Source: Lysobacteraceae bacterium (GTDB lineage: Bacteria; Pseudomonadota; Gammaproteobacteria; Xanthomonadales; Xanthomonadaceae). Taken from it: a stretch of 64,000 nucleotides of DNA. Position 1 is the first letter of the stretch. The number at the start of each line of letters is the position of its first letter. Below, piece after piece: positions 14,687 to 32,931 of this stretch. Both the position numbers and the translations under genes were made by a program. The stretch spans positions 1,557 through 65,556 of the forward strand of contig JANORD010000363.1 of the NCBI GenBank assembly GCA_031415095.1. Reading direction: 5' to 3'. Under the pieces are notes generated by a model, which saw only the letters and a program-made list of their open reading frames with translations, was not told the origin of the DNA and made no database searches.

Positions 14687-15889
14687 TCAGGGAAGCACCC
14701 GGGCCCCTCGGAGCCGCGGTTGGCCGTCACGTACTTCGGTCCAGGCCAGCCAGGCCTCACCGCCGCGGACCTGCAGGCGCGGGAAGCCGGTGGCGCGGCC
14801 GCGACCCGCCAGTTCGGCGACCTGCACCCGGAACACTTCGCGGCCCAGGTCCGGGCTCAGCTTGGCCAGCCAAAGACTCTGCTGGCCCTGGGATTCCTGC
14901 AGCCAACTGACCCAGACGCCGGCGGCGTCGGCCGCCAGGGCCACGCGGCCCAGCTGGGCCACCCCGCTGGCCAGGGTCAGCGGCCGACTGAAATGAGCGC
15001 CCGCGTCGGCCGACCCGGCCAGCCGCAGCGAAGGCACGCCTCCGGCCTCGGTGTACCAAGCCACCCAGGCTTGGTCGCCGCGGGCGGCAATAGCTGGGCC
15101 GTTCACCGGGCAAGCCGGCATCACCCAGCCGTCGGCATGCACGATGGCCGGCGCCGTCCAAGACTCGCCGTCAAAACGGGTGAGCTTGATGTCGCGGACC
15201 TCGTTGGCGTCGCGGTCGCGGTAGGCCACCAGCACGCCGCGGGCGCCGACGGCTGCGTCGGTCTGGCAGCAGTCGCAAGTCAGCGAGTCGAGTTCGTGCT
15301 CGGCGAGCTTGTTTCCGTTTGCGCCGAACACCGCCGCACGCAGGCTCATGCCGCCGCCGCCCTGGCTGCCATGGTCATGGCCGCCGCCGGTATTACGGCC
15401 ATCCAGCCAGACGATGCCCAGTTCACCGCTGGACTGGGGCCAGAGGCTGGCGAAACCGTGTTCGGTGGGCGTGCCGTCGCTGTGCACGGGGTCCACCGTG
15501 CGCCAGCGGCGCCCGCCGTCGCGCGAGGCGTGCAGCTGCACGTCATAGGCGTAAGGCGCATCGCCGTTGCTGACCAGCGTGTGCGCCCACAGGCTGCCGT
15601 CGGGCAGGGCCTGAAGGGCGGGGAAGTCGGCCCAGTTCACGAACCAGTCGCTGCCTTGGGCGATCAGCTGCGGTGGCGACCATGTCGGGTTGCGCGCCGG
15701 ATAGCTTGCAAACATCAGGCGATGGCCCTCGCCTTTGCGTTCAATCCAGCTCAGCAGCAGGTCGCCATTCGGCGCCTGCGCCAGGTTGGGCTGGGCCGAG
15801 CCCGGCGGGGCCGGCAGCGGCCAGTCTTGTACCGTGGCGGCCGCAGCCAGCCCCGGCAGCAGCAGCAGCGCAAACAGCGCGCGCCGCAT
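14687..15889 (-). CDS. Secreted BNR/Asp-box (sialidase-like) beta-propeller protein
   Basis: Signal peptide; Asp boxes SRDGGRRW and SADAGAHF; FVNWADFP, CDCCQT, CPVNGP motifs. Confidence 0.75.
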   Translation of the reverse strand: MRRALFALLLLPGLAAAATVQDWPLPAPPGSAQPNLAQAPNGDLLLSWIERKGEGHRLMFASYPARNPTWSPPQLIAQGSDWFVNWADFPALQALPDGSLWAHTLVSNGDAPYAYDVQLHASRDGGRRWRTVDPVHSDGTPTEHGFASLWPQSSGELGIVWLDGRNTGGGHDHGSQGGGGMSLRAAVFGANGNKLAEHELDSLTCDCCQTDAAVGARGVLVAYRDRDANEVRDIKLTRFDGESWTAPAIVHADGWVMPACPVNGPAIAARGDQAWVAWYTEAGGVPSLRLAGSADAGAHFSRPLTLASGVAQLGRVALAADAAGVWVSWLQESQGQQSLWLAKLSPDLGREVFRVQVAELAGRGRATGFPRLQVRGGEAWLAWTEVRDGQPRLRGARVLP

Positions 15890-17763
15890 CAGGCCACGCG
15901 CCGGCCGCGGCGGCGCGTCAGCTGCACCAGCAGCAGGGAAATGGCGGCCGGCGTCATGCCCGGGATGCGCTGGGCCTGGCCGATGGTTTCCGGGCGCACC
16001 CGGCCGAGCTTGGCCTGCAGCTCGGCCGACAGGCCGGGCAGCGCGTAGTCGAAATCCGGCGGGATGGCGGCCGCCTCGTTGCGCTGGCTGCGGGCGATTT
16101 CCAGGTCCTGGCGCTCCAGGTAGCCGGCGTACTTCACGCCGATTTCCACCTGCTCGGCCACGGCGGCCTCGGCTACGCCCGGTCCCAGCCCCGGCAGCTG
16201 CATCAGCGCGGCGTAGTCGAGCTCGGGCCGCTTCATCAGGTCCAACGCGGTGGCCTCGCGGCTCAGGGCCACGCCGGTGCGCTGCTCAAGCTGCGCGGCC
16301 AGCGCGCCGCCCGGCGCCACCCACACCGCCTGCAGCCGCGCGCGCTCACTCGCCACGGCGTCGGCCTTGCGCGAATAAGCGTCCCAGCGCGCGTCGTCCA
16401 CCAAGCCCAGGTCGCGCCCGATCGGCGTCAGGCGGGCGTCGGCGTTGTCCTCGCGCAGCTGCAGCCGGTACTCGGCGCGGCTGGTGAACATGCGGTAGGG
16501 CTCGGTGGTGCCGTGGGTGATCAGGTCGTCCACCAGCACGCCCAGGTAGGCCTGGTCGCGCCGCGGTGTCCACGGCTCGCGCTGCTGCACCTGGCGCGCG
16601 GCGTTGATGCCGGCCAGCAGTCCCTGCGCCGCGGCCTCTTCATAGCCGGTGGTGCCGTTGATCTGCCCGGCGAAGAACAGCCCGGCCACCGCCTTGGTCT
16701 CCAGCGAAGCCTTCAGCCCGCGCGGATCGAAATAGTCGTACTCGATGGCGTAGCCCGGGCGCGTGATGTGCGCATTCTCGAAGCCGCGGATGGAGCGCAC
16801 CAGCGCCACCTGGGTTTCATAGGGCAGCGAGGTGGAAATGCCGTTGGGGTAGATCTCGTGCGTGTCCAGGCCTTCGGGCTCGATGAATACCTGGTGCGAG
16901 GCCTTGTCGGCGAAGCGCACCACCTTGTCCTCGATGCTCGGGCAATAGCGCGGGCCCACGCCTTCGATCACGCCCGTGTACATCGGCGACTGGTGCAGCC
17001 CGGCGCGGATGATGTCGTGCGTGCGCTCGGAAGTGTGGGTGATCCAGCACGACACCTGCTGCGGATGCTCGGCCGCGCTGCCCAGGAACGAGAACACCGG
17101 CACCGGCGTGTCGCCCGGCTGCTCCACCAGGCCGTCGAAATCAACGCTGCGGCCGTCAATGCGCGGCGGCGTGCCGGTCTTGAGCCGGGCCACGCCCAGG
17201 GCGCGCTCGCGCAGGCGCTCCGCCAGCGCAGTCGCGGGCGGATCGCCGGCGCGGCCGCCGGCGAAATTGTTCAGGCCCACGTGGATGCGGCCGGCCAGGA
17301 AAGTGCCGGCGGTTAGCACCACGGCGCGCGCGTGGATGCGCAGGCCGCTCTGGGTGATCACGCCAACGACGCGGTCGTTCTCGATCAGCAGATCGTCCAC
17401 CGCCTGCTGGAACAACTGCAGGTTGGGCTGTGCTTCCACCTGCCTGCGGATGGCGGCGCGGTAAAGGGAGCGGTCGGCCTGGGCGCGGGTAGCGCGCACC
17501 GCCGGACCCTTGCTGGCGTTGAGCGTGCGCCACTGGATGCCGGCCGCGTCGGCGGCGTGCGCCATCGCCCCGCCCAGCGCGTCGATTTCGCGCACCAGGT
17601 GGCCCTTGCCGATGCCGCCGATGGCGGGATTGCAGCTCATCTGGCCCACGGTCTCGATGCTGTGGGTGAGCAGCAGGGTGCGTGCCCCGGCGCGCGCGCA
17701 GGCCAGTGCGGCCTCGGTGCCCGCATGGCCGCCGCCGATCACTATGACCTCAGGGTTCAACAT
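15889..17763 (-). CDS. mnmG: tRNA uridine 5-carboxymethylaminomethyl modification enzyme MnmG (GidA)
   Basis: [53 protein letters not shown]. Confidence 0.98.
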
Positions 17764-17834
17764 GTGACGCAGTTCCTGTTTGGCGCGCGACCGCGATTAT
17801 CACGCGTCGTCGCGCGGGCCGCACAAGAAAAGTT

Positions 17835-17850
17835 TGGCACGCTTCCTGCT
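17835..17850 (+). promoter_or_regulatory. Sigma54 (RpoN) -24/-12 promoter
   Basis: TGGCAC-gcttc-CTGCT versus consensus TGGCAC-N5-TTGCW, correct spacing; points into a non-coding structured region. Confidence 0.7.
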
Positions 17851-17860
17851 TCATGCCCAT

Positions 17861-17979
17861 GGCACCTACCGCGGCCAACGCCGGGGGGCGTCGACCAGAC
17901 TGAACAGGGGCTGGTCAGGCGCGCGGTAGGGATGCCAGGGTCGGGAACACCAGCAAGGGAGTTCCCGACCCATTTTTTT
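17861..17979 (+). ncRNA. Putative sigma54-dependent sRNA with G-rich loops
   Basis: Starts about 12 nt after the -12 box; GGCACCTACCGCG/CGCGGTAGGGATGCC closing stem, two inner hairpins, 11-bp terminator stem followed by T7. Confidence 0.62.
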
Positions 17980-18013
17980 GGGGTTTTTTTGCCACGCGCA
18001 GCGCGCCGCAGGG

Positions 18014-18138
18014 AAAGAAAAGTCGGCGCCCGGCGGGTCTTGGAACAGGGGGAATCCAGGGGACCTGGTGCCGGACGCCGAACAAGCGATGCGGGGGCAT
18101 GCGCGCGCGTCACAATGCGACGCGGTGAGTCATTCAAC
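18014..18138 (-). ncRNA. Putative sRNA (or 3'UTR-derived RNA) with C-rich loops
   Basis: Minus-strand hairpins carrying GCCCCCG and CCCCCUGUUCC, ending in a long stem plus UUUUCUUU; own sigma70-like promoter upstream. Confidence 0.55.
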
Positions 18139-18144
18139 GCTCAG

Positions 18145-18173
18145 AGGATGCGCCGCTGTCGATGACGGTGCAA
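18145..18173 (-). promoter_or_regulatory. Sigma70-like promoter for the minus-strand sRNA
   Basis: TTGCAC-17 bp-CATCCT on the minus strand. Confidence 0.45.
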
Positions 18174-18193
18174 CGACTAATCAAGCTGTATCT

Positions 18194-19309
18194 CTACTCT
18201 TCGTCGCTGCGCGTTTCATTCTGTGACGGGCCGCTCATTTCCTGCGGCTCTGGACGTTCAAAGCGCGGCTCGGGCTGTGAGCGCTCCACCTCGCGCGGCT
18301 CGTAGCGCTCCACCTCACGCGGCTCATAGCGCTCGACTTCACGGTACTCGGCCCGAGGCGCGGGCTCGCCATAGTCTTGCTGCGGCTCAAACTGCCGGCG
18401 GTCTTCGCGCGGTGCGGTTTGGCGATAGTCTTCGAACCTTTCCTCTTCGCGATACGCCTCACGCGGCTCGGGCTGCGCGTACTCGCGAGGATCGGGCCGG
18501 TAGGGGGCTTCACGCGGCGGCATCGGCTGATAGCCCTGCTGAGGCACGTCGCGCTGGGCCTCGAAAGCCGGCTCGAAGCCAGGCTCGGGCAGCGGGCCGT
18601 TCGGGTCTTTGCCGAAACTCGCGCGCGGCATGCGCCGGGCATTTTCCTCGTCAATGCGCTGCGCCGGCGGTTTGCCGCCGGAGCGGAAATCCGCGCGTCG
18701 CACCGGCGCGATAGCCGTTCCGCCGATGGGCTCGGGCCGGGTGCCATTGCCGCTGCCATCTGGGCCGTAGCCAGGACCAAAACCGATGGGTTCGCCGCCG
18801 ATCGGCCTGGGCCGCGGCGTGCCGTTATACGAGTCGCTGAAGACAGGCGCCACGTTGTCCACTACGTACGGATCACGGTAGCCAGGCGCGGCGCCCGGAG
18901 GCGGCTGGCGCGGATGCGGACGGTGCGGACGGTGGCCGTAGTAGCCCGGGCCGCCCCAAGGCGACCATTGGTTGCCGTACCAGCCCCAGTAGCCGTAGTT
19001 GTAGTGGCTGCCGAACGAGAGATTCCAGCCTGAATACGGCCGGCCGTAGTAACCGTTCCAGAACGGCGAGCAGCTGTAGTAGCCGGCGCAGGAATAGCGC
19101 GACAGGCCCCAGAAGGGGGTGTAGGAATCGTAGTAGTAATTGGTCTGCGGCTGCCGGCCCTGGTAGTAATCACCGTAGCCGTCCTGCGCCGGATAGTAGT
19201 AGCCGCCGTCCCGGTATTGGCTCTGCCGGTAGTAGCTGTCGGTGTAGGTCACGCAGCCCGACAGGCCGACCATCAGAAGCGTAGCAAGCAGGACTAGGCG
19301 GCGCGTCAT
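18194..19309 (-). CDS. Low-complexity lipoprotein (Tyr/Gly-rich N-region, Pro/Glu/Arg-rich repeats)
   Basis: Lipobox LSGC; RBS GGGGA; REVERYEP repeats. Confidence 0.75.
   Translation of the reverse strand: MTRRLVLLATLLMVGLSGCVTYTDSYYRQSQYRDGGYYYPAQDGYGDYYQGRQPQTNYYYDSYTPFWGLSRYSCAGYYSCSPFWNGYYGRPYSGWNLSFGSHYNYGYWGWYGNQWSPWGGPGYYGHRPHRPHPRQPPPGAAPGYRDPYVVDNVAPVFSDSYNGTPRPRPIGGEPIGFGPGYGPDGSGNGTRPEPIGGTAIAPVRRADFRSGGKPPAQRIDEENARRMPRASFGKDPNGPLPEPGFEPAFEAQRDVPQQGYQPMPPREAPYRPDPREYAQPEPREAYREEERFEDYRQTAPREDRRQFEPQQDYGEPAPRAEYREVERYEPREVERYEPREVERSQPEPRFERPEPQEMSGPSQNETRSDEE
18281..18344 (-). repeat. 24-bp tandem repeat (about 2.7 copies) encoding REVERYEP
   Basis: gcgctccacctcgcgcggctcgta / gcgctccacctcacgcggctcata / gcgctcgacttcacgg. 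Confidence 0.85.
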
Positions 19310-32854: not shown

Positions 32855-32931
32855 GCGCTCGTAGCTCAGCTGGATAGAGCACCACCCTCCGAAGGTGGGG
32901 GTCACAGGTTCGACTCCTGTCGGGCGCGCCA
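32855..32931 (+). tRNA. tRNA-Arg (anticodon CCG)
   Basis: 77-nt cloverleaf GCGCTCG...CGGGCGC-GCCA, anticodon loop CTCCGAA, T-loop TTCGACT; CATAAT -10 at 32840-32845. Confidence 0.98.

Follow-up and report, generated by a model that had tools for sequence, protein, structure and literature searches.

asX1 (RF02235) was described in Xanthomonas euvesicatoria as an RNA of 110 nt, verified by northern blotting and classed as cis-antisense; the available text of that report (PMC3300014) gives neither a function nor a promoter type. The accessible parts of two further papers report its expression in X. campestris (PMC4652430) and in Xylella (PMC12189769). A full-text search, mainly of papers outside the subscription journals, found no function for this RNA. 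sX13 (RF02232), another structured sRNA of the Xanthomonadales, uses C-rich loops against G-rich mRNA motifs; according to the available portion of its description, it represses mRNAs bearing such motifs, many of them for type IV pili and pilJ among them, independently of Hfq (PMC3771888). The nearest antagonist pair we found is CJnc180/CJnc190 of Campylobacter, whose members overlap and are perfectly complementary in the accessible account (PMC8687705); no sequence relation to it is claimed. In the trans-encoded sponges of Vibrio, Caulobacter and Bacillus, as far as the available excerpts describe them, an independent RNA under its own control imitates the site that an sRNA targets.

The locus presented here lies in a window of 64,000 nucleotides, the whole stretch of DNA that was analysed, and resembles each of these systems in part. 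Its first RNA, RNA1, matches the whole asX1 model and has the same hairpin layout and the same GAACAGGGG loop. Whereas asX1 was described as a cis-antisense RNA without function, the "gene" it overlaps is here a variable ORF on a separate, terminated sRNA, RNA2. To the earlier description we add a sigma54-type box, a partner that does not overlap, and homologues in at least three further families, reached with a model of asX1 plus its promoter. RNA2 shares the CCCCUG sequence and the C-rich loop with sX13, but it consists of one C-loop on a long stem at mnmG, in contrast to the three hairpins of sX13 at polA. Unlike CJnc180 and CJnc190, asX1 and RNA2 do not overlap, so that their complement of 6-11 bp must be selectively kept. 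The presumed sponge differs from the trans-encoded ones in that it is strongly folded, apparently with several G-loops available to two related C-loop sRNAs, in lying tail-to-tail with its partner, and in having a candidate enhancer inside the partner's gene. An RpoN-dependent sRNA pair described elsewhere (PMC11187230, available part) has no bearing on the pairing. RNA1 is thus a known RNA and RNA2 a new one, and comparison of their sequences makes the coupling between them well supported.

Two convergent RNAs upstream of mnmG

A gap of 430 bp (17764-18193) separates mnmG from a 371-codon ORF. The first-pass annotation had read it as two convergent, non-overlapping sRNAs, and this reading holds: every motif it listed was recovered in place when the window letters were read again (Table 1), and RNA1 ends at 17979, RNA2 at about 18014. 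At this locus asX1 therefore does not overlap its partner as a cis-encoded antisense RNA would. Against shuffled sequences both RNAs are far more stable (z -8.3 for RNA1, -4.4 for RNA2). A consensus promoter and terminator scan of 17500-18500 returned 0 promoters and 0 terminators. mnmG adjoins the locus in nearly all loci of the window's family, and also in loci of families f3, f4, f11 and f12. The 371-codon ORF (18194-19309, minus strand) begins like a lipoprotein, is rich in Tyr and Gly at its N-terminus and ends in a repeat-rich tail; it gave no match in a Pfam search, occupies the place of XCV0393 in Xanthomonas, and is conserved at the genus level only in its N-terminal 100 residues.

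Table 1. Features of the asX1/RNA2 locus, in window positions
Feature	Position	Strand	Basis or remark
mnmG (gidA)	15889-17763	-	Pfam GIDA, E 1e-172; neighbour on the asX1 side
Sigma54-type -24/-12 box TTGGCACGCTTCCTGCT	17834-17850	+	predicted +1 at 17861
RNA1, asX1 homologue	17861-17979	+	two hairpins inside a 5' stem, followed by terminator and U-run
asX1 loop 1 (GGGG)	17883-17886, within GGGGGGCG 17883-17890	+	predicted unpaired
asX1 loop-2 seed GAACAGGGG, core CAGGGG	17902-17910	+	complementary to RNA2 loop
asX1 terminator hairpin and U-run	17938-17979	+	fold and alignment of relatives
RNA2	about 18014-18137	-	sRNA without Rfam family; the orthologous transcript bears the CDS annotation XCV0392
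RNA2 core hairpin, covarying outer stem	18022-18082	-	covariation
RNA2 apical element GGAUUCCCCCUGUUCC	18042-18057	-	closing pairs GGA/UCC and CCCCUGU conserved
UGCCCCCG hairpin, proposed second contact	18092-18099	-	lineage-specific
Three-half-site DNA motif TGAC-N7-GTCR-N5-TGAC	18108-18134	-	+4 to +30 of RNA2
RNA2 promoter TTGCAC-17-CATCCT (-35 TTGCAC, -10 CATCCT)	18173-18145	-	orthologous elements in Xanthomonas

RNA1 aligns with RF02235 from 17863 to 17977, over model positions 1-115 of 115, at 67.4 bits (E 1.1e-9). This full-length match falls below the gathering threshold of 70 bits, and it was found only by an E-value scan; at the gathering threshold the sole Rfam match in the window is a tRNA gene (32855-32928, plus strand). 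Since 24 of 62 genus genomes pass 70 bits at the orthologous locus, RNA1 can be taken as a slightly diverged asX1 orthologue. It also sits where asX1 was described, between mnmG and the XCV0392 transcript. The first-pass annotation had missed this identity; RNA2, for its part, is without an Rfam match. A weak match to P11 (E 0.16) derives mostly from the sigma54 box. The terminator loop of asX1 (17949-17960) is ACCAGCAAGGGA-like here and carries a run of 4-7 G in most relatives; this genome seems to have lost a third G-loop. One relative (locus L083, genome G171) has a long insertion in hairpin 1 of asX1, yet keeps an 11-bp complement to RNA2, and has a second GAACAGGGG near the 3' end of RNA2.

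No Rfam family matches RNA2, either here or in 15 related loci. Searched against 151 genomes of the order, a model built from 17 sequences has matches in 85, spread over 8 of 12 families, and a refined version matched none of 149 genomes from other families of the same class. The outer stem shows two-sided changes in 7 of its 13 pairs on a MAFFT alignment that was not model-fitted, and all 13 covary on a model-fitted alignment of 88 sequences. Every one-sided change produces a G-U wobble on the minus strand, which fixes the strand of RNA2. The apical GGA...CCCCUGUUCC is nearly invariant. RNA2 thus has the makings of a C-rich-loop sRNA, namely a conserved C-rich apical loop that is predicted unpaired and a covarying stem. 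It is nevertheless not sX13: RF02232 has no match on RNA2, and this genome carries a separate sX13 on another contig.

Transcription of the RNA2 orthologue has in effect been published. Position 447445(-) of X. euvesicatoria is given, in the available text, as the primary start of the hypothetical gene XCV0392 (PMC3300014); on the named locus L059 it maps 7 bases past the -10 element orthologous to CATCCT of the window. The mapping is validated by the ATGs of XCV0392 and XCV0393, which lie at exactly the published distances. The RNA2 orthologue is therefore transcribed in X. euvesicatoria, and the minus-strand origin claimed for RNA2 is borne out both by this start and by the minus-strand G-U changes. 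Orthologues of the promoter elements are present in 23 of 23 named Xanthomonas loci, and a separate terminator hairpin follows RNA2 in 22 of the 23. In contigs of RNA-seq run X15, an unstranded data set from one study that we do not count as evidence, cover stops at the asX1 terminator and resumes at the RNA2 terminator; the same uncounted contigs include a 36-nt piece on the RNA2 3' arm at a depth of 10933. In full texts, again mainly from outside the subscription journals, we found no mention of XCV0392 and no description of an asX1/RNA2 pair. The available parts of three Xanthomonas sRNA papers (PMC3039613, PMC2996969, PMC8336823) did not reveal RNA2; six motifs of both RNAs are absent from the accessible supplements of the first, and the Xoo3 and Xoo6 primers given there are unmatched in the 23 named Xanthomonas loci (best 15/21).

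Loop complementarity and coupled loss

GAACAGGGG occurs a second time at 18043-18051, where the minus strand reads CCCCUGUUC; RNA1 17902-17910 is thus the exact complement of this part of RNA2, as had been claimed, and the complement is conserved in five families. In this genome alone the match carries little weight: among 3000 dinucleotide shuffles, 11% gave a perfect 9-nt complement, and plain co-folding of RNA1 with RNA2, which is blind to loop-loop contacts, returned two separate folds. The folding checks accordingly confirm two strongly folded RNAs, while co-fold and single-genome shuffle are not significant, and the weight rests on conservation and coupled loss. The net energy, hybridisation plus opening cost, is -8.5 kcal/mol for ACAGGGG/CCCCUGU and -8.1 for the 9-mer.

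Our survey covered 101 RNA2 loci, 82 in families f1, f3, f4, f11 and f12 and 19 in f2, f8 and f10. Among the 82, a facing sigma54-type box is present in 79, a Watson-Crick helix of 6-11 bp on the RNA2 loop in 78 and CAGGG in 77; when only the 48 loci are counted that the RNA2 model detects by itself, the helix occurs in 45 and CAGGG in 44. The register of the helix differs between families. It is extended 5'-ward in the window's family and in f4 (GGAACAGGGG/CCCCUGUUCC). Mostly only (A)CAGGGG is kept in f3 and f12, where helices of 6-7 bp are individually not significant (shuffle p 0.05-0.55). In f11 a short RNA of different structure carries a complement of 8-11 bp in a shifted register at 10 of 12 loci, with the helix extended 3'-ward (CAGGGGGAAUC/GAUUCCCCCUG). 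These f11 RNAs (for example L105:939-1029 and L143:909-996, both plus strand) replace asX1 by about 50-60 nt behind a sigma54 box, often TGGCCCG, with a G-rich leader and a terminator; asX1 models do not match them, and at L143 RNA2 has a U-to-C change opposite a partner G. Conversely, all 50 genomes matched by the asX1-plus-promoter model carry an adjacent RNA2. The 19 loci of f2, f8 and f10 have an intact RNA2 loop and no detected partner beside it: the asX1 model found none, none lies upstream of mnmG in 5 of 5 genomes, and searching by pattern returned 10 matches, compared with 4 in the control.

The covariation expected of interacting loops is present in part. The RNA2 stem covaries; between the seeds, these alignments showed no compensatory change on both sides, as the RNA2 loop is nearly invariant. 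One further occurrence of GGAACAGGGG, the 10-mer of the asX1 seed, runs from the variable loop into the T-stem of tRNA-Glu(CTC) (G000:C92:6242-6317, minus strand), and mnmG is a tRNA-modifying gene; the match is probably due to chance, as the G-run is paired in the tRNA.

The fate of the two seeds within the window's genus is more telling. Of the 58 genomes in which we read the region upstream of mnmG, 30 carry both seeds; in 13 asX1 is seedless and RNA2 absent, one has both seeds mutated, 10 have neither RNA, and four are uninformative owing to contig ends or an insertion. The 13 RNA2-less genomes retain the sigma54 box, the asX1 stems and loop 1, and 12 of them the terminator and U-run as well; loop 2 has become GCAA, GAAA, UUAC or some other unrelated loop. 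In G361, the doubly mutated case, RNA2 has decayed (CCUCUGUUCU) and the asX1 seed is altered. Not one of the 58 has an intact asX1 seed without RNA2, or the reverse. The 10 genomes without either RNA form one clade. On an MnmG tree of 38 rows (12 of 14 seedless genomes, leaving aside the long-branched G007 and G020, together with 18 of the 30 genomes that carry both seeds, 4 of the 10 that have neither RNA, and 4 outgroups) the seedless state requires five changes, at least three of them forced by well-supported branches, the backbone being weakly resolved. Neighbouring genes often disappear together, and related genomes are not independent observations. Four genomes (G366, G351, G013 and G360) have an altered RNA2 loop, and the alteration falls solely at a C that asX1 leaves unpaired.

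Taken as a comparison of sequences, this pattern indicates that loop 2 of asX1 is kept for RNA2, and the RNA2 loop for other targets. asX1 has what a sponge should have, an accessible complement to the seed of its partner that is maintained together with that partner. The RNA2 loop persists without asX1, and genomes that have lost RNA2 show no asX1 seed; the likely regulator is therefore RNA2, with asX1 as its antagonist. The first-pass annotation had assigned the roles in the same way, and the outliving of RNA1 by the RNA2 loop, together with the vanishing of the RNA1 seed along with RNA2, speaks for it.

A second contact that had been proposed, GGGGGCG with UGCCCCC, is not supported. The letters are present, but on the RNA1 side a stem takes up three of the seven bases, and the contact has a net energy of +0.4 kcal/mol; moreover, the GCCCCC hairpin occurs in 12 of 46 RNA2 loci, all of one genus subclade, and loop 1 of asX1 is kept in all 13 genomes without RNA2. 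Loop 1 is thus not dedicated to RNA2, and a likelier partner may be sX13, which is present here, in 18 of 18 other genomes of the family and in 5 of 5 RNA2-less genomes tested. The sX13 homologue at G000:C348:10747-10862 (minus strand; L151) scores 47 bits, below the Rfam cut-off of 50. sX13-like matches reach families f12, f8, f4 and f11, a wider range than described.

The sigma54-type promoter, its associated motif and candidate targets

Ahead of RNA1 a sigma54-type box had been proposed, and comparison upholds it: all 22 of the diverse loci that were aligned keep GGC and TGC unchanged, the box precedes asX1 in 23 of 23 named Xanthomonas loci, and the published read cluster of asX1 in X. euvesicatoria begins 3 bases past the predicted +1. 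The 5' "hairpin" of RNA2, for its part, has the behaviour of a DNA site tied to the sigma54 promoter, a property that the first-pass annotation had missed. Its letters form the motif TGAC-N7-GTCR-N5-TGAC on the first 30 bases of RNA2 in 45 of 46 loci of the family. The motif is kept in 14 of 14 genus genomes in which RNA2 is lost or decayed, and in 0 of 10 without asX1; it thus follows the sigma54 promoter and not RNA2. Where RNA2 has been lost, it can shift to within about 130 bases of the sigma54 box. Partial motifs occur in 15 of 17 f12, 9 of 15 f3 and 1 of 12 f11 loci.

Which activator might bind there is suggested by other occurrences. With a weight matrix the motif of the window ranks first in its genome, and second comes a site on the contig that holds pilS-pilR, where a sigma54 box follows it at a distance of about 80 bases, at the contig's end. 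The exact pattern gave 13 matches in five other genomes (control 2), five at the asX1 locus, four before the pilin sigma54 promoter (in three genomes) and four elsewhere. PilR (77-80% identity) is present in three of five motif-bearing seedless genomes; no orthologue was found in the other two, both fragmented assemblies. In the motif-less clade without asX1, 5 of 5 genomes have PilR only as diverged copies, whose identity is at most 59%. In this small-genome clade (L188 = G016; G024, G004, G365, G358, G346) both RNAs and the motif are lost, and the PilR-like protein is shortened and diverged; an activator domain of G016 is without the GAFTGA loop. Sigma54 activators can act from downstream; our literature search found no passage on downstream sigma54 enhancers, and no binding, rpoN or pilR experiment on asX1 or RNA2. 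In Lysobacter, PilR binds the pilA promoter at a site said, in the accessible part of the paper, to have diverged from the Pseudomonas consensus (PMC8035640).

Sites of the Clp/CRP type were seen as well. GTGA-N6-TCAC lies about 35-55 bases upstream of the asX1 sigma54 box (L059) in 22 of 23 named Xanthomonas loci, and the RNA2 promoter has Clp-like sites nearby in 11 of 12 f11 and 8 of 11 f8 loci. For Rhodanobacter, the available text of a preprint names pilin as a common target of Clp and PilR (bioRxiv 10.64898/2026.06.06.730518).

pilJ is the sole gene among 2346 roughly predicted ones with ACAGGGG at -25 to -3. Its leader carries CAGGG in 28 of 36 RNA2-positive genus genomes versus 0 of 11 in which RNA2 is missing or decayed, the positives being mostly of one clade and clustered on the tree. 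A universal role for pilJ was rejected, as CAGGGG is found in 6 of 66 leaders across the order and is absent from Xanthomonas-type rows, and the leader site fits sX13 equally well; pilJ is accordingly a candidate target of RNA2 for this clade only, judged by its leader sequence. Other matches to the seed in the genome gave no convincing target, and no universal mRNA target was found. Many of the ACAGGGG matches stem from a repeated intergenic element ending in CCCTCCTACAGGGG (G000 contigs C103, C105, C197, C306 and C360).

Alternative readings and a possible pilus switch

The explanation we favour, and hold to be somewhat more probable than all others together, is that RNA2 represses mRNAs whose ribosome-binding regions are G-rich through its C-rich loop and that asX1 would be a sigma54-dependent decoy neutralising that loop. 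Its parts deserve different degrees of confidence. The two RNAs quite probably meet loop to loop, CAGGGG with CCCCUG, whereupon the contact would extend into the closing stem of RNA2 in a direction set by the family, 5'-ward in the window's family (GGAAC/GUUCC) and 3'-ward in f11 (GAAUC/GAUUC). Given such pairing, we have strong grounds to expect that asX1 antagonises RNA2 and not the reverse.

Improbable, though the likeliest of the alternatives, is the idea that both RNAs are independent. asX1 would then be a G-loop RNA aimed at sX13 or at C-rich mRNA sites, and the complement would be either the remnant of an old inverted duplication or a by-product, arising because RNA2 and sX13, with their C-loops, read one and the same G-rich motif. 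Loops 1 and 3 of sX13 do carry the CCCCUG that it has in common with RNA2, partners in f3 and f12 match just 6-7 bases, and asX1 survives without RNA2 in 13 genomes; those 13, however, lost precisely the loop-2 seed and kept loop 1 and the promoter. sX13 is present in the five RNA2-less genomes tested, where a seed that served it should have persisted. In f1, f4 and f11, in addition, the complement runs 9-11 bases into RNA2-specific sequence that is absent from sX13.

We consider it less probable still that the roles are reversed, asX1 being a sigma54-induced regulator of mRNAs and RNA2 a constitutive sponge that sets its threshold. A complement is symmetric, a universal mRNA target of RNA2 was not found, and the deep short RNA-seq piece on the RNA2 3' arm is what an abundant buffer might give, a weak indication at best. 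A regulator's seed should, on the other hand, outlast its sponge, and it is the RNA2 loop that stands unchanged in 19 partnerless loci, whereas the asX1 seed is gone wherever RNA2 is missing.

RNA2 could also be a short mRNA, XCV0392, whose peptide asX1 controls in trans, a reading to which we give very little credence. Its published start is the primary start of XCV0392, and an ATG-started frame of 24 codons occurs in 15 of 23 named Xanthomonas loci. That frame nevertheless ranges from 24 to 120 aa inside one genus, the longer versions running through asX1, which explains the "antisense" label. Third codon positions in the loop are invariant, and the stem changes in compensatory fashion. The ATG is ACG in L028, and shifts or stops interrupt the frame in L016, L017, L020 and L037 (alignment A1); with start or frame often broken outside Xanthomonas, a protein gene was judged unlikely. 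Hardly credible, finally, is a plus-strand direct repeat, whether a protein-binding DNA site or two plus-strand hairpins, with no minus-strand RNA: there are indeed two plus-strand copies of GAACAGGGG, 141 bases apart, but the one-sided stem changes give G-U pairs if the minus strand is read and would give A-C mismatches if the plus strand were, the minus-strand start is published, the copies stand anywhere between about 110 and 220 bases from each other in the family, and other families retain no more than CAGGGG of the first one.

If asX1 is indeed a decoy for RNA2, one could envision the following circuit. A sigma54 activator, most likely PilR, would occupy the three half-sites on the first 30 bases of RNA2, switch on asX1 from about 250 bases downstream, and perhaps block the RNA2 promoter at the same time; to judge from the distribution of the motif, the case for this activator is evenly balanced. 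It is also conceivable, at rather less than even likelihood, that the other G-rich loops of asX1 titrate the related C-loop sRNA sX13. That RNA2 acts on mRNAs of type IV pili, with pilJ as an example for this clade, is a more tentative suggestion, and would mean that turning on pilin transcription lifts C-loop repression of pilus mRNAs. It is tempting, though rather unlikely to be right, to combine these elements into a pilus switch operating throughout the order, in which PilR bound within the RNA2 gene shuts off RNA2 and enhances asX1, the latter serving as a modular sponge whose G-loops are divided between RNA2 and sX13, a virulence regulator, with the f11-type RNA as a sponge rebuilt on another scaffold and in a shifted register.

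These observations propose a testable function for asX1, which is among the most widely conserved sRNAs of Xanthomonas and has been unexplained since 2012. RNA2, conserved still more widely, has been hidden beneath a hypothetical-gene annotation. Pairs of sRNA and sponge are normally found by ligation experiments. In the present case the pairing can be read from evolution alone, in that the seed is missing only where the partner is lost, and in that two registers and two scaffolds occur; the same pattern of coupled loss of seed and partner could be searched for in other bacteria. Should the link to PilR prove true, it would join sigma54-dependent transcription of pilin to the post-transcriptional C-loop control that sX13 is already known to exert, and this in a group with plant pathogens, an opportunist and biocontrol strains among its members.
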